Virus record (IMG/VR): IMGVR_UViG_3300032238_000977
Coordinates: 14,410-78,409 of that record
DNA from: a virus
Length of the DNA stretch: 64,000 nt
Reading direction: 5' to 3' (one strand)
Shown here: positions 18,348-56,962 of the stretch, piece by piece
How positions within the stretch are numbered: the first letter of the stretch is position 1
How the letters are laid out: every line of letters starts with the position of its first letter
Position numbers and translations under genes: made by a program
Notes under the pieces: model-generated
Databases searched by the model: none
What the model was told of the DNA's origin: nothing
What the model saw: the letters and a program-made list of their open reading frames with translations, nothing else

Positions 18348-20628
18348 ACTCCCCCTCCTCTACTGAACTTAACTCATCAATTAAACTTTCCAATTCGGAT
18401 TTTTTATCTTCAATTACCTCATCAGTTTTGATATCATAAGTATTTTGGTAATAAGATGTTTTCCATCCGTACTTGTATGTAGTCAAGAAGTCATTAGCCA
18501 TTACACTAATAGGAATTTCATTATCCGTGTAATGTTCCGGATTATAGGACCAGTTTCCAGAAATCGCTTGATCGAAGAACTTTTGCATAACTGCAACAAT
18601 ATTAATGTACCCATTATTGCTAGGCATATCCCACAGCAACGTATAATTGTTCTTAAGTGTTTGGTACTGGGGAACAATTTGCTTAAGTGGACCCTTCTTC
18701 GACTTCTTAATGGACAAGTATCCGCGAGGTGGTTCGATACCGTTGGTTGCATTTGACACAACGGAACTGCTCTCTGAAGGCATTTGTGCGGACAATGTGC
18801 TGTGTCGCAAACCATGTGCCTGAATTTCGGCACGTAAAGTCTCCCAATCATGTTGATATGAAATAGAGGAAATTTCGTCTACATCTTTTTTATAAGTATC
18901 GATAGGAAGTATTCCATCTGCATATTTTGTACGTCCAAAATTAATACAATGTCCCTTTTCCTTAGCTAACTGATTAGATGCTTTGAGAAGATAATATTGA
19001 AAAGACTCAGATAGACCGTGAACGGCGTCCCACGCCACCTGAGAGTCGTATTTGCACCCCAGTTTCGCCAAATAGTGAGCAAGACCGATAAACCCTACTC
19101 CAAGCGAACGACGCGCCTTGGTGGCGATTTCTGCCGCTACTACGGGGTATTTCTGATAGTCGATCAACTCTTCAAGTCCACGAACCGTAAGATCACAAAG
19201 TTCCTCAAGTTCATCATCAGATTTTACTTTACCAACATTGATTGCAGAAAGAATGCAAAGAGCAATTTCTCCACTAGTATCATCGATGTGCTGAATAGGA
19301 TGAGTAGGAAGAGTAATTTCCTGACATAAATTACTCATCTCAATTTTATCTTTAAATGATGAATGAGAATTGCAATGGTCAATATTCATGATATAGATAC
19401 GACCCGTCTCAGCACGTTCTTTGAGGAGGTTAAAAATGAGTTCTTGCGCCTTAACACTTTTCGACGGAATGGACGAATTGTTCTCATATTCAACGTATAA
19501 ATCGTCAAACTTGTCTGTTCCAAAAGAATCGTAAAGTCCAGGGACATCATGTGGGGAGAAAAGAGTGATTTCACCGTCTTGAATAAACCTTTCATAGAAC
19601 AACTTGCTAATTTGAATAGAGTAATCCAGTTTACGGACACGATTATCTTCAGTTCCCTTGTTGTTCTTGAGAACTAGAATGTCTTGGATTTCTTGGTGCC
19701 AGATTGGGAAGTGTACTGTTGCGCTTCCACCTCTGATGCCATTCTGTGTACAGCATCGGACAGTTGCCTCAAACTTCTTGAGGAATGGGACAACCCCAGT
19801 ATGAGCAACTTCTCCGCCTCTGATCTTGCTGTTGATACCACGGATTCTGCCTGCGTTGATACCGATTCCCGCCCTTTGAGCAACATAGCGCATAATAGCC
19901 AGGTCGCTACTACCGATACTATCGAGGGTGTCATCAACATCAACAAGAACACAACTAGCAAATTGTCTAAGTGGCGTCCGTACTCCCGCCATGATGGGCG
20001 TTGGAATGTTGATTTTGTGTTTTGAGATTGCGTCATAGTACCTCCTGACGTATGACATTCTTGTTTCTTTAGAATAATCCGCAAAAATAGTCAAAGCAAT
20101 CATCATGTACATAAATTGTGGAGTCTCATACACCCCACCAGTGCTTCTATCCTGCACAAGGTATTTGTCAACAACTTGACGTAGACCTGCATAAGTGAAC
20201 AGATAGTCACGATCATGATCAATATATGAATCTGCTTTATCAATTTCTTCCTTCGAATACTTATTATAAATTTCAACATCATACACTTCCTCACCAACAC
20301 ATTTGTAAATGTGCTGCTCAAGGGCAGGCAATTCCTTCATCTTACCATACAACTGCTTTCTTACGGCAAAAAGAAGCAAACGAGCAGCCACAAATTGATA
20401 ATTAGGATGATCAAGATCGATCAAATCAGAAGCAGAACGAATCAAAATCTCCTGAATTTCTGCAGTTGTAATTCCATCATAAAACTGAATACCAGAAGTC
20501 ATCTCAACTTGACTTGCAGAAACTCCAGCAAGACCTTTACAAGCCTCATCAACCATTAGATGCATTTTATCAAGGTCAAGGGATTCAATTCTCCCGTCTC
20601 TCTTTTTTACTTTTGTACCGTTGCTCAT
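18328..20628 (-). CDS. nrdA: Ribonucleotide reductase class Ia alpha subunit
   Basis: ATP cone, PTPIMAG, QFASC, SNLCQEI, C-terminal CESC. Confidence 0.97.
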   Translation of the reverse strand: MSNGTKVKKRDGRIESLDLDKMHLMVDEACKGLAGVSASQVEMTSGIQFYDGITTAEIQEILIRSASDLIDLDHPNYQFVAARLLLFAVRKQLYGKMKELPALEQHIYKCVGEEVYDVEIYNKYSKEEIDKADSYIDHDRDYLFTYAGLRQVVDKYLVQDRSTGGVYETPQFMYMMIALTIFADYSKETRMSYVRRYYDAISKHKINIPTPIMAGVRTPLRQFASCVLVDVDDTLDSIGSSDLAIMRYVAQRAGIGINAGRIRGINSKIRGGEVAHTGVVPFLKKFEATVRCCTQNGIRGGSATVHFPIWHQEIQDILVLKNNKGTEDNRVRKLDYSIQISKLFYERFIQDGEITLFSPHDVPGLYDSFGTDKFDDLYVEYENNSSIPSKSVKAQELIFNLLKERAETGRIYIMNIDHCNSHSSFKDKIEMSNLCQEITLPTHPIQHIDDTSGEIALCILSAINVGKVKSDDELEELCDLTVRGLEELIDYQKYPVVAAEIATKARRSLGVGFIGLAHYLAKLGCKYDSQVAWDAVHGLSESFQYYLLKASNQLAKEKGHCINFGRTKYADGILPIDTYKKDVDEISSISYQHDWETLRAEIQAHGLRHSTLSAQMPSESSSVVSNATNGIEPPRGYLSIKKSKKGPLKQIVPQYQTLKNNYTLLWDMPSNNGYINIVAVMQKFFDQAISGNWSYNPEHYTDNEIPISVMANDFLTTYKYGWKTSYYQNTYDIKTDEVIEDKKSELESLIDELSSVEEGECESCAV

Positions 20629-21596
20629 ATCTTTTTCCAAGTAGTAAATTTAAGTTTTGCTTCTAATCCAGAATAAGTATTTAATTCTATCACGGACTGT
20701 ACATCAAGTCCAGATAATACCATTTCATTAATATCCTTTTCTTTTATAGTTGATGGCCAGATGACGACTCTTTCACCTCTAGAGATGGTAGATTCGATTC
20801 GGGAGACAATTTGTGAATTTCTTGGTTCGTTATCGTATATCCAAACAGGATTGTTAATCCCCCACTCACTAATATCAGCATCAGCTCCGCACATAGCAAT
20901 CGCATTGCGAATAAACGTACTATCGAAAGGTCCTTCTGTAACATAAACTGTTTCGTCTTTTTTAAGGTCATCAATTCCATAGATTTTCGGAGCATTCTCC
21001 TCCAACATTATAGTAATGTATTTTACTTTTGATTCTTGAAGTAAAGACCTCCCTTGATATCCAACAAATCTATTTTGATAAAACAAAGGAATAATAATCC
21101 TTGGTTCATCTCTATTTACGTTTTCAAATGTTGGTTGAAGAGAATTAGTCCACTCCTTAAATTTTTCAGCGTAATAATAGTTATCTGGGTTTAACTTTCT
21201 ATTTTCAAGATACTTCCTAGCGTCAGAATTTGAAGACACTTTTGGAAGATCTAATTTTGGTTTAAACTTTGGAGTATTAAAATTAAATTTTGGTTCTTCA
21301 ACTACAAAGTTTTTACCTGTTTTACCCTCTTTAAATTTTTCAAATGCATATTGCTTGTACATCTCACTATCTACTTTTTTAAGTAGATTGTTAAAAGATA
21401 TATTTGTACCACAATTATGACACTTAAAATTAATGTTATTTTTTACTTGATAAAGATACCCTCTTGCTTTATTTTTACTTCTTTCAGAATCTCCACAAAT
21501 AGGGCATCTAAAATTGTAAAGATTATCTTTAATTCTTTTAAATTTTTGAAGTCTGATAGAAATCAAATTGATGTATTTAACATCAACAAAATCCAT
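20625..21596 (-). CDS. g61: DNA primase gp61
   Basis: RCPICGDS...CHNC zinc finger, EGPFDS TOPRIM, DNEPRN. Confidence 0.95.
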   Translation of the reverse strand: MDFVDVKYINLISIRLQKFKRIKDNLYNFRCPICGDSERSKNKARGYLYQVKNNINFKCHNCGTNISFNNLLKKVDSEMYKQYAFEKFKEGKTGKNFVVEEPKFNFNTPKFKPKLDLPKVSSNSDARKYLENRKLNPDNYYYAEKFKEWTNSLQPTFENVNRDEPRIIIPLFYQNRFVGYQGRSLLQESKVKYITIMLEENAPKIYGIDDLKKDETVYVTEGPFDSTFIRNAIAMCGADADISEWGINNPVWIYDNEPRNSQIVSRIESTISRGERVVIWPSTIKEKDINEMVLSGLDVQSVIELNTYSGLEAKLKFTTWKKI

Positions 21597-21648: not shown

Positions 21649-21785
21649 GACATAAAACCGTTATAATTCCCGTCCATTTTATAACGGAATTTGTAAGTTT
21701 ATGTAGAGAGTAGTTGGTAGGTTTCTTTTTAGTTTTCATGAGGCAACAATGTGTGCCCAATCTCATACTATTTATTATATGGATC

Positions 21786-22211
21786 TTATTTCGATCTTTC
21801 TATTGAAAGTGCAGGTATTGGTTTGGGGTCCAAGAAAGAACTTACTGTTGGAGCAATTCCAATTAAAAACGCAACTATCGCAAGTGCTCCAACTGCTTTC
21901 CATTTAAACTGTGATATCTCTTCTACTTTCTCTTCTACTTTTTCTATTCTTTCTCCAAGTTCTTTACTAATTGCATCATGCTGTTCCTTCGAAGACTTTT
22001 TGATATCTTCAATCATTGATACAATTAAATTGTCTGTTCTATTGCACTGTTCAATCTTTTCATTATGAACAGCTAGCATTTGACTAATATTTTGACTTGT
22101 CTCACCAATCTTTTGAATTGCAGTATCAATCCTTTCCATCATCTGCTCATACGCAGTAATACGCTCTTCGAGTATTGCTATTTTTGTTTCCGCAGATGAT
22201 GATTGGAACAT
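21786..22211 (-). CDS. Coiled-coil protein with C-terminal TM helix
   Basis: Heptad pattern then WKAVGALAIVAFLIGIA. Confidence 0.75.
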   Translation of the reverse strand: MFQSSSAETKIAILEERITAYEQMMERIDTAIQKIGETSQNISQMLAVHNEKIEQCNRTDNLIVSMIEDIKKSSKEQHDAISKELGERIEKVEEKVEEISQFKWKAVGALAIVAFLIGIAPTVSSFLDPKPIPALSIERSK

Positions 22212-22212
22212 T

Positions 22213-22461
22213 TTACTTCTTTGTTCGATTTCTTAAGTAATCCATCCATTTTTTTCTGGAATCTTTTCCACCCTTTGCATATCTCTTCCGCACAGATCCC
22301 ATTTTAGGATCAAACCCAGCGGTAGGACCTGGATCAAAACCCTGAGCACTTCCACCAAATCCAGCCTTACCAGCAGTGCTAGCAGTACTCATTGTTGGGA
22401 CACCATCTTCTTTCAGATGCCTAAAGGCTTCTATTATTCTATCAAGTTTCGTTTTGTCCAT
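22213..22461 (-). CDS. Small protein carrying a major-capsid N-arm-like peptide
   Basis: AGFGGSAQGFDPGPTAGFDP vs gp23 AGFGGSAQGFSAGPTAGFDP. Confidence 0.8.
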   Translation of the reverse strand: MDKTKLDRIIEAFRHLKEDGVPTMSTASTAGKAGFGGSAQGFDPGPTAGFDPKMGSVRKRYAKGGKDSRKKWMDYLRNRTKK

Positions 22462-22834
22462 GGAAGATTTTTTGCAATTCCTTTAAGCAGACCAGATCAA
22501 CTTTTATATCATGAATATAGCACTTTGGGTACTCTGGCAATTTACCCAGAAACATCACAAATGTTTTCATTATTTCCCAAAGATCTTTTTCTATTTTATA
22601 AAAAAGCATTGGGGTCGTCGCATCACCAAATATATTATAAAGAATAATAAAATGATTGAGAAGGAGGTGAGTTTTTAACTTACCAGTATTTTTATATCTT
22701 TTCAAAAGTCTTTTAATATACTTAAAATGATTCAAGTCCTTCTCAAAGTCTTCTTTAGTGACTGCTTGAGGATTTTCATAATTTTTAATAGCGAACAAGA
22801 GGAAATTATCCTCATTCAATTCATTAAATATCAT
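22442..22834 (-). CDS. Conserved T4-like phage hypothetical protein
   Basis: FLLFAIKNYENP...FKYIKRL...LLLNHFIILYNIFG pattern. Confidence 0.8.
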   Translation of the reverse strand: MIFNELNEDNFLLFAIKNYENPQAVTKEDFEKDLNHFKYIKRLLKRYKNTGKLKTHLLLNHFIILYNIFGDATTPMLFYKIEKDLWEIMKTFVMFLGKLPEYPKCYIHDIKVDLVCLKELQKIFHGQNET

Positions 22835-22840
22835 ATTCTA

Positions 22841-23872
22841 TCAAACAACTGTTAATGTAGTAGTTCCAATACCAACAGATCCGGTAATTCCCGCGCCGCC
22901 AATATTGCGAATAAGAATATCACCAAATTGCGAAGTAAATGAACTAGTTACTCCAGCACCATTTGAACCATCAGTGATTACACCAACAAATCCTTTACTC
23001 ATATCAATTTTAAGAGTGGTAGCATTTGTACGAGTACTAAATGTTACGGTAGAACCCACTCCTAGGGATGCATTTGAAGTACTTCCTGCACCAATCTGAA
23101 TGTAAGTAGATGCGACAGAGACTACAGGAGCATTAGTAATTTTAATTCCAGTAGTAGTATTTACTGTGACGGAACTGCCGATAGAAACTCCACTTACAGA
23201 GTCAATGTAAATTGTCGTTGCTCCTACACCAGCAGCATTTCCAGTAGTAACTGCTGTTGTTAAGAAATTAACATTAGCTGATAAAACAGTGCTTGGTGAA
23301 GTGAATGCAAATGCTACTCTATTGGTAATTTGTCCATTAAAATTGGTATAAACATTAGGAGAACCATGAGTAGCTGCTGCTCCTACCCAACCATACTGAG
23401 TACCACCATTGGATGGAGAATACGCAATAACTGCAGTGCTTTCATTTCCATTCGCATCAAAAGTACGAATACGAACAGTTGATCCAGTTCCGGCAAATAC
23501 CAACTCGTTGAAAACAACATGAACATATCCCGTTGTACCCGCGCCAATACGAGTTGTTCCACCACCACCAACTGAGATTGGAGATGCTTCATTTGGATCT
23601 TCAAAGAAAACTGCAACTGGACCAGCAGTTCCTAGTCCAGTACCTCCAAGAGTATTACTATTCAATCCAGTAACATCAACCAAAATTTCATCAAAATAGC
23701 GATTTGAAAGTCCAGAATTAACTTTAGTTTTATATCTTCTCTGAATCCAACCACGAACATCAGCAAAGCAATTCCAAGGAGTGTTGTTTCTATCGTTTTC
23801 AGATAGATGCTTTGGAATAGCGTAATTATTAGCCGCAGTTTCAGTAGTTGTGGAAATTCCCCAGAGTGCCAT
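22841..23872 (-). CDS. Virion structural protein (G/T/S-rich)
   Basis: Start MALWG; beta-rich Gly/Thr composition; TATAAATA late promoter upstream. Confidence 0.7.
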   Translation of the reverse strand: MALWGISTTTETAANNYAIPKHLSENDRNNTPWNCFADVRGWIQRRYKTKVNSGLSNRYFDEILVDVTGLNSNTLGGTGLGTAGPVAVFFEDPNEASPISVGGGGTTRIGAGTTGYVHVVFNELVFAGTGSTVRIRTFDANGNESTAVIAYSPSNGGTQYGWVGAAATHGSPNVYTNFNGQITNRVAFAFTSPSTVLSANVNFLTTAVTTGNAAGVGATTIYIDSVSGVSIGSSVTVNTTTGIKITNAPVVSVASTYIQIGAGSTSNASLGVGSTVTFSTRTNATTLKIDMSKGFVGVITDGSNGAGVTSSFTSQFGDILIRNIGGAGITGSVGIGTTTLTVV

Positions 23873-23960
23873 CCTTTTTACCTTTATTAATTTAATCGTA
23901 GAAATATTTATAAAAAATGGGGAGTAGACTCCCCTCATATAATATTAAATTTTTATTTAC

Positions 23961-53021: not shown

Positions 53022-54455
53022 TCACATGAGGTTCTTAACAGCAACTCTTCTGTAGTAACGGTTTGCGTTAACAGTGAGGTTACCTTGACCCTGAGTTGTA
53101 CCCTCAGCGAATGGGTTAGCAACCATACCATAACGAGTCTTAAACCCGATTTTTGGTTGGAAGCTGTTCTCACCAACGGCACGTACCATTTGGAGAGGAA
53201 CATATGGGCAATAGAAGAGACCTGCGTCATAAGGTGAAGAACCCTTATAACCAACAACGTAGTACTGGTTACCACCTGTTGGAGCAGCGTTACCTGTAGT
53301 CAGGTTAGCAGCATATGGGTCAATGTAGACGCGGAATTTGCCCATCAAAGTACCAGCAAAAGTATTGCCAGTGTCGTCAACGTTAAGGTTAGCGTTGAGT
53401 GCGGGGGTGTAATCGAGAACACCAGCCATGGTGAGTGCTGAAGCAACGTCAGCAGAACACATGATGATGTTGCCCTTTCCACGACGAGTTCTTTGTGCGA
53501 TTGCGTTAGCATCACGCTCGATTTGGAAAAGAAGACCCTTGAACTTCTCAACAGACCAACGACCGTTGGAATCAACGTCGAGGTCAAATACACCAGCAGT
53601 AGCGGTGTTTTGTGCAGCACCCTGTTCAGCAACCCTGTAGATGGTTCTGATAACTTCGCGGTTGATTTCAGCAAGAATCTCGGTTGAGAGAATATTTGCT
53701 AATTCCGCTTCAGCGTTCAGACCGTGGATTGCCTTAAGGTCTTGTGCGAGTTCTAAGGTGTACTCAGCTTTGAGTGCGCGTGACTTTGCAGTAACGGTAA
53801 CTTTCTCGATTGAGAAAGCCATCTGGTTGAATGCATCAGCACCGCTATCAAGAGCTTCTGCCTGATCAGTACGCATACCCTGACCAACATTGTAGTCAGT
53901 GCTGGTTGAAGATGCGGTTGGATTAAGAACTCCTGGGTTTGAACCGCTTTGTGCGGTAGTACCCATACCAACTGAGCCGTCGGTGAATCCGTCGCTATTA
54001 TCACGACCAAATGGTTGCCCAGAGTATGCAGTATCAACTTCGTTGAAGAATGCTTCTGTGCCGCTCTGGCTGTTGTAGCGTGAGCGCATTGCGAAGATGA
54101 GTCCAGTAGGACCGTTCATTGGTTGAACGCCTGCGAGGTCATAAGCGACCAAGTTGGGCATTGAACGTCTGATCAATGAGATCAGAACTGGATCGAAACC
54201 TGCAGTAGGACCTGCGCTGAATCCTTGTGCGCTACCACCGAAACCAGCTGTACCACCTGAAGCAGTGCTGTTTGCTGCGGTTTCGGATAAGAATGAACCT
54301 GCAGTATCAAATGCAGATTGCTCTCTTAAAAACTTTTCTTGGTTTTCTAGCAGGACTGCGGTTACCGCTCTACGATGTGAATCTTTGATTGAATCAAGAC
54401 CCTCATAGTTGAGGAGTGGTGCCCACTTTTCCTGCAGATGCTCGGAATGGAACAT
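53022..54455 (-). CDS. g23: Major capsid protein gp23
   Basis: KWAPLL, GVQPMNGPTGLIFAMR, KSRALKAEY, FQPKIGFKTRYG. Confidence 0.98.
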   Translation of the reverse strand: MFHSEHLQEKWAPLLNYEGLDSIKDSHRRAVTAVLLENQEKFLREQSAFDTAGSFLSETAANSTASGGTAGFGGSAQGFSAGPTAGFDPVLISLIRRSMPNLVAYDLAGVQPMNGPTGLIFAMRSRYNSQSGTEAFFNEVDTAYSGQPFGRDNSDGFTDGSVGMGTTAQSGSNPGVLNPTASSTSTDYNVGQGMRTDQAEALDSGADAFNQMAFSIEKVTVTAKSRALKAEYTLELAQDLKAIHGLNAEAELANILSTEILAEINREVIRTIYRVAEQGAAQNTATAGVFDLDVDSNGRWSVEKFKGLLFQIERDANAIAQRTRRGKGNIIMCSADVASALTMAGVLDYTPALNANLNVDDTGNTFAGTLMGKFRVYIDPYAANLTTGNAAPTGGNQYYVVGYKGSSPYDAGLFYCPYVPLQMVRAVGENSFQPKIGFKTRYGMVANPFAEGTTQGQGNLTVNANRYYRRVAVKNLM

Positions 54456-54510: not shown

Positions 54511-55698
54511 TTATTTGCTAAAGGATGAAAGCGTTCTCAGATAAGCGGCCATAGAACCTGTTACATTTTCAGGTGCTCTGTCTACTCCCTCCGAGAGGGT
54601 TTCTGTTTTAGCCGATGGAGATACCATTCTTGAAGGAAAATATGACTCCTTCAAAGTCTCCAACTTTTCACGATATTCTTCTTCACTTTCAAACTCAACA
54701 CTTTCGGCAAGTGAAGCGAGCTTTTCTTTCTGAGTAGCAGCAAGGCCCTCAGAAACTTGATCTAAGATCCCATCAGCAACCGACTCTGCGAGACGCTTGT
54801 TTAAGGAAATATTTCTCTCAATCTGCTCGTTGAGTTTTGTCTCCATTTCGTCAAGTTTATCTACCATATTCTCTAATACATCATATCTATCTTCAGGGAT
54901 TGTTACATAATGCTCTTCAAAAAGTCCCTTCATGCCTGAAAGGAATGATTCTGTGATTTCAGTTTTGAGTCCATGCTCTATTGCTAGAGCATTTTCCTCA
55001 AACCATTCATCAGCAACATATTCTAAATATGAATCAATTCTTTCTTGAAGAGTTGATTTAATTTCTTCAACTTCTTCAAAAAGTCTTTGACCATACTGCT
55101 CTTCAAGAGCTTCCTTAATGTCAGAAACTTTTGAGCGAAGAGCAGCTTCAAAGATGATACGTGCTTTCTCTTGGAATTCCTCAGAAAGCTCTTCACCTTC
55201 TAGGAGAGCACTAACATCTTCTTCAATATTAAAATCTTCTTTTACTTCCTCTTCATCATCTTCCTCTTCATCATCCTCTTCGGATTTCTTCTTGTTTTTC
55301 TTTTTATCTTCTTCTTCGTCTTCGTCTTCTTTGGCGGCTTCCAAGATCTCTTCTTCCGAGATCTCTTCTTCGGAGATGAGATCCTCATCATCTTCTTCTG
55401 ATTCTTCTTTAACAGCACCTTTCAGTTGAGGAGTTGGATCCGCAGATTTAGCTCCCTTATTAATTACATCCCTAACTTGCTTAAGAGTTGCACCAGGGGT
55501 TTTTAATTTAGCTGAATCATCATCTGGACGATAGTTTGTTGGATCTGGGCCACCCAGATCTTCCCAACTACCTGTCTGACCAGCAACGGCACCTGCTGCT
55601 AGTTTGGGCATCGAATCTCCCGCTTTTGCATTTGCATTGACAGCGGTTTTGGATTGCTTAGTGCCTACTTCCATTTCTTGTAAATCTCCACGAGACAT
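54511..55698 (-). CDS. g22: Prohead core scaffold gp22
   Basis: Acidic coiled coil, LSEEF..KA..IFEAA, YLEYVADEW. Confidence 0.9.
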   Translation of the reverse strand: MSRGDLQEMEVGTKQSKTAVNANAKAGDSMPKLAAGAVAGQTGSWEDLGGPDPTNYRPDDDSAKLKTPGATLKQVRDVINKGAKSADPTPQLKGAVKEESEEDDEDLISEEEISEEEILEAAKEDEDEEEDKKKNKKKSEEDDEEEDDEEEVKEDFNIEEDVSALLEGEELSEEFQEKARIIFEAALRSKVSDIKEALEEQYGQRLFEEVEEIKSTLQERIDSYLEYVADEWFEENALAIEHGLKTEITESFLSGMKGLFEEHYVTIPEDRYDVLENMVDKLDEMETKLNEQIERNISLNKRLAESVADGILDQVSEGLAATQKEKLASLAESVEFESEEEYREKLETLKESYFPSRMVSPSAKTETLSEGVDRAPENVTGSMAAYLRTLSSFSK

Positions 55699-55757: not shown

Positions 55758-56408
55758 TTACAATGAGTTTAAAAACTCATTGAATAAATTTAATTTATTC
55801 TCTTCTAGAATTTTTTGATCTACAAGAGTATTAATTCTTTTGAAAGTTCTTTCCGCTGATCTTTCACGAAGCATTCCACCTTCCCAAACCCACTCCTTAC
55901 CTTCCATAATTCCTGATACAAAAGCGTCAGGAGCAGAAGGATCAGCAACGATATCTGCCGCAGTTGCAAGCATGAAATCTTCACCAACCTCGGTAAATCC
56001 TTCTCTCGTTGTTTTTACCGAACCAATTCCTCTAGAGGAAACTCCAAGAGTTACTCCTTCTTTAAGAAGAGATTCTGCAATTTTACCCATTGGGGTAGAA
56101 AGAATCTGCGCCTTACCGATAAAGTTATTTCCTTCGCGGTGAAGAGAAACAATCTTATGAGAAACACGATCAAGGTTGACGGTTGGTCCATCAGGGTGAC
56201 CAAGTTCTCCAAGAGCACGACCTTTATTTACATATTGCTCAGAATAACGCTTTACCTCTCTTTCCATAACAGGTAAGCGATACATTCTACCATTGCGGTT
56301 TACAACTTCAGTTTGTAGGAAAGGTCCTTGAATATAAAGAGTCTTCTTACCGTTGACTGTTTCGGTAAGAACTTCTACTGATTCAATTTCTTCGGTAATG
56401 AGTTTCAT
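55758..56408 (-). CDS. g21: Prohead protease gp21
   Basis: ALGELGHP, GVSSRG, DIVADPSAPDA. Confidence 0.95.
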   Translation of the reverse strand: MKLITEEIESVEVLTETVNGKKTLYIQGPFLQTEVVNRNGRMYRLPVMEREVKRYSEQYVNKGRALGELGHPDGPTVNLDRVSHKIVSLHREGNNFIGKAQILSTPMGKIAESLLKEGVTLGVSSRGIGSVKTTREGFTEVGEDFMLATAADIVADPSAPDAFVSGIMEGKEWVWEGGMLRERSAERTFKRINTLVDQKILEENKLNLFNEFLNSL

Positions 56409-56962
56409 TATGCTTGCCCCGTTGTTTGTACTTGTTGAATGTATACTATTCCAGAACCACCTTCGGTTCTAGCAGATACTCTTGTAGATCTTTTTAAATC
56501 CGCATATGATGAAGATGCAAATGCAGTCGCTATTCCACTTGAGTTATAATCAACAGTAATTCTTTCTGAAAAATAACCATCATAAGATGATGTATTATTT
56601 GTAGATTTAACTGGAACGTGGACAAAATTATAATAAGTTTGTCCGCTAACAGTTAAAGTTACATAGTCTCCTACTGAAAAAGGAGACTGAGTTCCCTCCG
56701 CAAAAATAATAGTCGTTGTTGTTCCGGTTGTTATACCTACGACTCTATTTGAACCTGGAGTTAACGCTAGGGTCTCACTTTTTCCTGCTGGAATATAATA
56801 ATCAGAAATTGTGGCGGTTGGATTTGTACCAATTGCAACAAATGCACCAGCACTAACGGCAGTCACTCTTAGAACGTTTGATTGAACTGTGAATGAGGTT
56901 GTTAATGATGATACTGCGGTTGTTGATAAAGAAATTCCCGCCCCTACTGGTTTATGAGCCAT
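56408..56962 (-). CDS. Putative virion structural protein
   Basis: T/S/G-rich beta protein in the head operon. Confidence 0.65.
   Translation of the reverse strand: MAHKPVGAGISLSTTAVSSLTTSFTVQSNVLRVTAVSAGAFVAIGTNPTATISDYYIPAGKSETLALTPGSNRVVGITTGTTTTIIFAEGTQSPFSVGDYVTLTVSGQTYYNFVHVPVKSTNNTSSYDGYFSERITVDYNSSGIATAFASSSYADLKRSTRVSARTEGGSGIVYIQQVQTTGQA

Follow-up and report, generated by a model that had tools for sequence, protein, structure and literature searches.

A small gene of T4-like phages was found to carry a copy of the start of the mature major capsid protein gp23, and this copy follows the gp23 of its own genome. In the 64,000-nucleotide stretch analyzed here (the window), which comes from a 78-kb T4-like cyanomyovirus record, the gene is an 82-aa ORF in which a leader, the gp23 copy and a basic tail follow one another. 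The best explanation, to which we assign a probability of about 0.5, is that its product is a minor head peptide of the T4 61.1 family that would be targeted to the prohead, processed by the prohead protease gp21 and used for N-fist contacts. The ORF, its parts and the template of the copy are located as follows.

22213..22461, minus strand: the small ORF, 82 aa (ORF list; phrog_3286, E 7.5e-7; phrog_696, E 2.9e-4)
22408..22461, minus strand: leader, residues 1-18, a predicted helix with LKE at its end (family alignment)
22408-22416, minus strand: LKE, a putative gp21-type (L/I)xE site (motif)
22282..22389, minus strand: copy of the mature gp23 N-terminus, residues 25-60 (BLASTP, E 2e-12; whole-record search)
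22306-22365, minus strand: core of the copy, residues 33-52 (codon comparison)
22216..22305, minus strand: basic tail, residues 53-82, with 8 K, 5 R and 2 D (translation)
53022..54455, minus strand: gp23 major capsid protein, 477 aa (Pfam Gp23, E 1.6e-151)
54165..54290, minus strand: gp23 residues 56-97, template of the copy, with the putative site LSE58, the N-fist equivalent and the start of the N-arm

A preliminary description of the ORF had reported that residues 33-52 share 18 of 20 positions with gp23 residues 70-89 (nt 54189-54248), that STAS precedes both matches and an LxE motif lies upstream of both, and that most of the identical residues use different codons. Each of these observations was reproduced: 13 of the 18 identical residues have different codons and 5 have the same one, 43 of the 60 nucleotides are identical, and the match is preceded at a distance of 15 residues by LKE in the ORF (residues 16-18) and of 12 residues by LSE in gp23 (residues 56-58). 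The BLASTP alignment pairs ORF residues 25-60 with gp23 residues 62-97, and 21 of 36 residues are identical. When gp23 residues 46-97 were used as a query against the whole 78-kb record, the only matches were gp23 itself and the 82-aa ORF (E 2.6e-11, 70% identity over 33 aa). Compared with gp23 (and its paralogue gp24), the ORF shares ~35 residues with the mature gp23 N-terminus, while it has no HK97-fold body and no Pfam Gp23 (PF07068) match and is similar only in residues 25-60. Several members of the family are nevertheless labelled 'major head protein' or 'major capsid protein' in RefSeq/UniRef, a label that is an annotation artefact of the short copy of ~35 residues. We rejected this identity, which comes from automatic annotation with no experiment behind it. 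Such labels on gp61.1-type genes are a systematic and widespread misannotation, which the present finding corrects.

The ORF had also been described as a mimic of the gp23 N-arm. In T4 terms the copied segment comprises the N-fist together with the start of the N-arm, and we corrected the label. In T4, gp23* residues 66-91 form the N-fist, which is followed by the N-arm (PMC7136217, PMC9546572). Both are disordered and inside the unexpanded head, where they probably touch the scaffold, and both move to the outer surface upon head expansion (PMC9546572, PMC9958956). In the expanded head, the N-fist contacts four subunits and helps to form the Soc site, and the head-length mutants A66D, A94V and G97S map to the N-fist/N-arm region (PMC7136217, PMC9546572, PMC9958956). 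The copied segment is also the most variable part of gp23, with a pairwise identity of 0.49 versus 0.82 in the body.

Whether the small protein co-varies with gp23, as the preliminary description had proposed, was examined in 32 T4-like phage genomes by comparing each small protein with each gp23 N-region using Smith-Waterman alignment. The double-centred own-genome excess was 15.7 versus 0 +/- 2.0 in 20,000 permutations (p<5e-5). The excess persisted when the conserved GPxAGFDPV was left out and the variable part alone was scored (9.8 +/- 1.4, p<5e-5), as well as when one genome per lineage was used for 21 lineages (12.3 +/- 1.7, p<5e-5). An old duplication followed by independent divergence would predict no own-genome excess. 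Tracking is imperfect: the T4-GC426 forms of ACG-2014b, Syn30, P-SSM7 and S-RIM2 fit the gp23 of S-ShM2 above their own, which may reflect a lag or an exchange of either the gp23 5' end or the small gene. The long form of P-SSM4, unlike these four other T4-GC426 forms, fits its own gp23.

The codons tell at which level the match is kept. Among the 485 identical aligned residues of all pairs, 190 have the same codon, compared with 243 expected from gp23 codon usage, and in the window pair this is the case for 8 of 25 identical residues. Since same-codon pairs are not above expectation, the match is maintained at the protein level and does not come from a recent DNA duplication, in agreement with the preliminary description. 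Recent gene conversion was considered as well and is ruled out by these counts (190 observed against 243 expected; 5 of 18 in the core of the window pair). Because the most variable part of the capsid protein is tracked at the protein level, a sequence-specific contact of the N-fist is implied.

The same data bear on the idea that the gene arose from gp23 by gene conversion or duplication and persists with no function. T4-like phages recombine actively, and the copy has been lost in some lineages, with little or none of it left in the P-SSM2 and S-PM2-type genes. A remnant, however, would not account for synonymous sites that are randomised while the residues are kept, for a copy that in every case has a cut site or start codon on one side and a charged tail on the other, or for a design that, judged by sequence layout, is kept in Kyanoviridae, Straboviridae and Emdodecavirus. 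We find this explanation scarcely credible.

In addition to its match with gp23, the ORF has 99 protein-level homologues of 53-93 aa in marine metagenomes, all of them unnamed; together with the conserved synteny described below, these indicate that it is a real gene. K/R-rich tails are present throughout the family, and a [LIV]xE motif directly precedes the copy in 96 of the 99 homologues (LKE in 42, IRE in 31, LRE in 11). The ORF matches the profile of phrog_3286, a group of small cyanophage proteins, and more weakly that of phrog_696, labelled 'major head protein'; the genes at the same position in S-SM2 and S-CAM7 match phrog_3286 with E 4e-27 and 3.5e-28, respectively. No family was found by Pfam search with any form of the gene at this position.

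These forms range from 62 to 286 aa and are spread over several PHROGs: phrog_3286 holds the short forms, phrog_696 (equal to T4-GC426) the long forms, phrog_4187 (equal to T4-GC844) the S-PM2 type, and phrog_18642 together with phrog_2086 those of phiM7 and Melnitz. Most of them copy the start of their own mature gp23, from just past the maturation site to the conserved DPVLISLIRR, and a K/R-rich stretch always comes after the copy. In the short forms the copy follows [LIV]xE, in the long cyanophage forms it follows the start Met directly, and it is preceded by IVEVE in phiM7 and by LNEE in GAP161. Given this position after a cut site or the start Met, the copy would always become N-terminal after a gp21-type cut, as in gp23*. 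The pairing is also visible in lineage-specific strings that occur only in the two genes of one genome: TNVGPINTPTT in both MED4-213 genes, VGADGFQGS in both S-CRM01 genes, QTTGYT with the preceding xNE site in both P-SSM4 genes, VGTGGF in both S-ShM2 genes and TNTGNI in both phiM7 genes.

Other forms at this position have diverged. The P-SSM2 gene (T4-GC199) keeps the leader helix, and a Cys pair and a Gly/Asn-rich tail replace the copy, while in the forms of S-PM2 (S-PM2p147, T4-GC844), Syn1 and S-RSM4 only an xLNE junction resembling the site of their own gp23 remains. In an AF2 model of a long cyanophage form, residues 1-60 are disordered, and downstream of them come a small beta-beta-alpha-beta domain and a helix of 75 residues; a Foldseek search of this model against the PDB returned nothing at E<=0.001. 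In the AF2 model of a GAP161-type long form, the N-domain is helical and both the copy and the tail are disordered; this model had no match in the PDB.

The 82-aa ORF lies within a tight minus-strand operon in the order structural-like protein, DUF7207, 82-aa ORF, DUF7201, gp61 primase and nrdA. The features around it are as follows.

23905..23912, minus strand: T4-type late promoter TATAAATA, a perfect match ~30 nt before ATG 23872
22841..23872, minus strand: Gly/Thr-rich structural-like protein, the first gene of the operon, likely start ATG 23872
22442..22834, minus strand: DUF7207 gene (T4-GC 198; Pfam, E 2.6e-54)
21786..22211, minus strand: DUF7201 coiled-coil protein with a C-terminal hydrophobic segment (T4-GC 201; Pfam, E 8.4e-38)
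20625..21596, minus strand: gp61 DNA primase (relatives annotated gp61/primase, in identical order)

The 3' end of the DUF7207 gene overlaps the start of the ORF by 20 nt, and the DUF7201 gene starts 1 nt past its stop. The same gene order is found in P-TIM68, S-CAM7, S-SM2, S-PM2, Syn1, P-SSM4, Sinorhizobium phage phiM7 and others. The first gene of the operon carries the annotation of a virion structural protein in both S-PM2 (p145) and S-ShM2. The forms of the small gene in S-PM2 (S-PM2p147), S-ShM2 and P-SSM4 are annotated as hypothetical, with upstream neighbours annotated as virion structural proteins. We dropped an identification of this locus with the 'S-PM2_163/165 structural' proteins (PMC2984593), as the S-PM2 record has p147 as 'hypothetical'. 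All six matches to TATAAATA in the window are on the coding strand, one of them 42 nt before gp22. A terminator-like hairpin at 23919-23934 (6 bp, GC-rich, with a T-run) closes the upstream 59-aa gene, and its T-run continues into the late promoter at 23905-23912, forming a compact terminator-promoter junction. A second late-promoter-like sequence, AATAAATA, lies at 21776 on the minus strand, after the DUF7201 stop and within the 189-nt gap before gp61.

Searches beyond the cyanophages led to T4 gene 61.1. A tblastn search with the T4 N-fist gave ~490 records with a second match, which in VR25 and GAP161 is the gene annotated gp61.1, directly upstream of the primase gene 61. With VR25 gp61.1 as the query, 1,488 phage records were matched, mostly at two places each. 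T4 gp61.1 is a 54-aa 'hypothetical protein' (phrog_1823), and the long forms, such as GAP161_028, belong to phrog_2086. Its N-terminus, MKTFKEFIKE, is identical at 7 of 10 positions to the leader MKTYQEFIAE of the internal proteins IPII/IPIII; a six-frame scan of T4 with the pattern of this leader retrieved ipII, ipIII and 61.1 only, and VR25 gp61.1 also has the pattern. Residues 2-38 of gp61.1 align with gp23 residues 57-93 in T4 without gaps, with 17 identical residues and 6 shared codons, and E10 of gp61.1 is in register with the gp23 cut E65|A66. A search of the T4 genome with gp61.1 found itself and gp23 only (E 1.4e-5). In VR25, TATAAATA is located 24 nt upstream of the 61.1 start. The gene next to 61.1 in T4, 61.2, is AdfA, an anti-DarT factor (Pfam PF23813, E 1e-135), and the T4 mimic gene, unlike those of cyanophages, is thus at the edge of an anti-defence cluster (61.2/adfA, with sp and dmd nearby).

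The window ORF has no similarity to T4 gp61.1 that BLASTP could detect (E 0.13) and does not match the profiles of phrog_1823 or phrog_2086, its PHROG matches being phrog_3286 and phrog_696 only, as one would expect of proteins that each follow the gp23 of their own phage. Instead, a bridge from the Straboviridae gene to the DUF7207/DUF7201 slot is provided by phiM7 gp353, which sits in this slot as the window ORF does and has an N-domain homologous to that of the GAP161 long form (E 2e-13, with phrog_2086 and phrog_18642 in common); the match of the T4 short form is to the C-terminal region of phrog_2086. We therefore regard the 82-aa ORF, by position and design, as the cyanophage counterpart of T4 gene 61.1, a sequence-based assignment that draws on gene position, shared design and the phiM7/GAP161 bridge.

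The design, which is also seen in T4, VR25 and GAP161, consists of a leader with (L/I)xE, a copy of the phage's own gp23 N-fist and a charged tail, and the window ORF has all three. The settings differ in part: in T4, 61.1 is the immediate upstream neighbour of primase gene 61 and shares its strand; in the window the strand is likewise shared, but DUF7201 lies between the ORF and gp61, and DUF7207 lies upstream. The T4 leader is of the MKTF..FI.E type and that of the window ORF is not, having no match to the 10-residue MKTYQEFIAE-type targeting consensus of T4; the tail is purely basic in the window ORF but of mixed charge in T4 gp61.1. The window ORF also resembles T4 IPII/IPIII, which are likewise small and basic with an N-terminal propeptide ending in (L/I)xE. 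In contrast to gp61.1-type proteins, the T4 internal proteins do not contain a gp23 copy, and while the presence of IPII/IPIII in the head is proven (PMC9026906, PMC9958956), gp61.1-type proteins are known here from sequence. The 10-residue IPIII leader is enough for head targeting and gp21 processing, according to the part of PMC9026906 that cites Mullaney and Black 1996.

Small peptides rich in K/R easily escape detection. In a time-resolved T4 study (PMC9697503, supplement 4), the proteome did not include gp61.1, and its RNA was classed as early, the same as those of ipI-III. Nor is gp61.1 mentioned in PMC5694885, where a T4 cleavage logo was built from 13 sites in 9 head proteins. In the literature on gp61.1 we found incidental mentions and neither a functional study nor a published description of the mimic.

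From these observations, a sequence of events can be proposed for the minor head peptide. The small gene would be transcribed from the late-promoter operon, and the leader would bring the small protein into the assembling prohead, where gp21 would cut at LKE18, the same relative position as in gp23. Protease maturation had been claimed in the preliminary description; the conserved [LIV]xE, the presence of gp21 in the window, and in T4 gp61.1 the IPII/IPIII-type leader and the cut site in register with that of gp23 are consistent with it, and the cleavage itself stays a prediction. The product would be a ~64-aa basic peptide whose free N-terminal segment is the same as that of gp23*, and for this reason we propose that it engages the partners of the gp23 N-terminus. 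Before head expansion these partners would be on the scaffold side, and later they might include neighbouring subunits; the peptide would thus be a minor head or internal component and may influence head assembly or stability. Several of the observations above count against this course of events: the small gene is annotated as hypothetical in S-PM2, S-ShM2 and P-SSM4, T4 gp61.1 went undetected in the proteome, the leader of the window ORF is not of the T4 targeting type, tracking has exceptions, and BLASTP detects no similarity between the window ORF and T4 gp61.1. Nor did we find virion evidence for a member of the family. A complex prediction of two gp23 chains (residues 98-477) with peptide residues 19-82, run with alignments, gave a score of 0.02 against a mark of 0.32, which is evidence neither way. 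The protease and the scaffold are encoded close to gp23 in the window.

55758..56408, minus strand: gp21 prohead protease (Pfam Peptidase_S77, E 3.8e-36)
54511..55698, minus strand: gp22 scaffolding core protein (Pfam T4_CASP, E 1.9e-81)

The conserved cut site could also be read differently, with the small protein competing for the prohead protease as a substrate or regulating it: by occupying gp21, it would time or buffer gp23 maturation, or limit off-target cleavage. The T4 copy includes the cut site in register with gp23, and since hosts can sense gp21 activity through CBASS (PMC12991175), control of the protease could matter. However, the long cyanophage forms begin with the copy and have no cut site, and gp21 reads little beyond (L/I)xE, so that tracking ~25 hypervariable residues on the P' side would be needless; the basic tail is not accounted for either. 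We consider such a regulator unlikely.

The location of the peptide in the head was the subject of the model in the preliminary description, according to which it fills binding sites left empty at the portal vertex while its tail contacts DNA or the portal; in terms of N-fist sockets, this would take 5-10 copies. In T4, each of the five D subunits nearest the portal has a disordered N-fist, owing to its orientation towards the portal (PMC7136217), so that N-fist contacts are not complete around this vertex. On the other hand, the T4 N-fists are outside after expansion (PMC9546572) and would be hard to reach for a peptide released inside, and a search of the T4 in situ portal-vertex paper for five terms denoting extra or unassigned density returned nothing. 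A few copies per virion would also require neither a late operon position nor, in T4, the leader of proteins that are present at hundreds of copies. We regard this placement as very unlikely.

A third role would lie outside the head: a cytoplasmic copy of the gp23 N-terminus could act as a decoy against capsid-sensing host defences by binding the sensor without triggering it. This role would require the copy to keep pace with the capsid protein of the same phage, as is seen here, and the N-fist, being more variable than the rest of gp23, would be in keeping with an arms race; T4 61.1 also adjoins the anti-defence genes. The leader of the head-targeting type and the gp21 site, in contrast, would route the protein to the prohead and not to a cytoplasmic sensor, and in cyanophages and phiM7 the gene is accompanied by DUF7207, DUF7201 and a structural gene with a late promoter, with no defence genes. 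We know of no sensor of the copied gp23 segment, which also counts against a decoy; the Gol peptide, sensed by Lit, is presumably just downstream of the copied part of gp23. Overall, we give the decoy a small chance.

Besides a minor head peptide with N-fist contacts, a stronger proposal would give gp61.1-type peptides a genuine structural place in the T4-like capsid lattice, which we consider doubtful and improbable. If it were true, the prohead core would be the loading route for a free N-fist, which would then be inserted at lattice positions that have no gp23 N-terminus or, alternatively, pair with the gp23 N-fists. The peptide would then have to match the hypervariable N-fist of its own phage and would be a self-recognition element of head assembly that was missed in T4.

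T4 head assembly is among the best-studied pathways, and the occurrence of the design in T4 points to an overlooked head-assembly component. Coliphages, marine cyanophages and rhizobial phages have all retained the gene, and it copies the very segment of gp23 that is cut and refolded in maturation. The window contributed the cyanophage and rhizobiophage operon context and the range of architectures, and in addition the 32-genome tracking test restricted to the hypervariable part and the codon statistics.

We also noted several features of the neighbouring genes. DUF7201 and DUF7207 flank the mimic gene from cyanophages through Sinorhizobium phage phiM7, and a head-assembly role for these two proteins would be a guess. 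DUF7207 is present in 506 phage records and also occurs in Stenotrophomonas, Caulobacter, Pelagibacter and Methylophilales phages. Near the head genes of the window, the gene upstream of gp21 (56408-56962) encodes a 184-aa DUF7243 protein (E 2.3e-31), at the place where T4 has genes 67 and 68.
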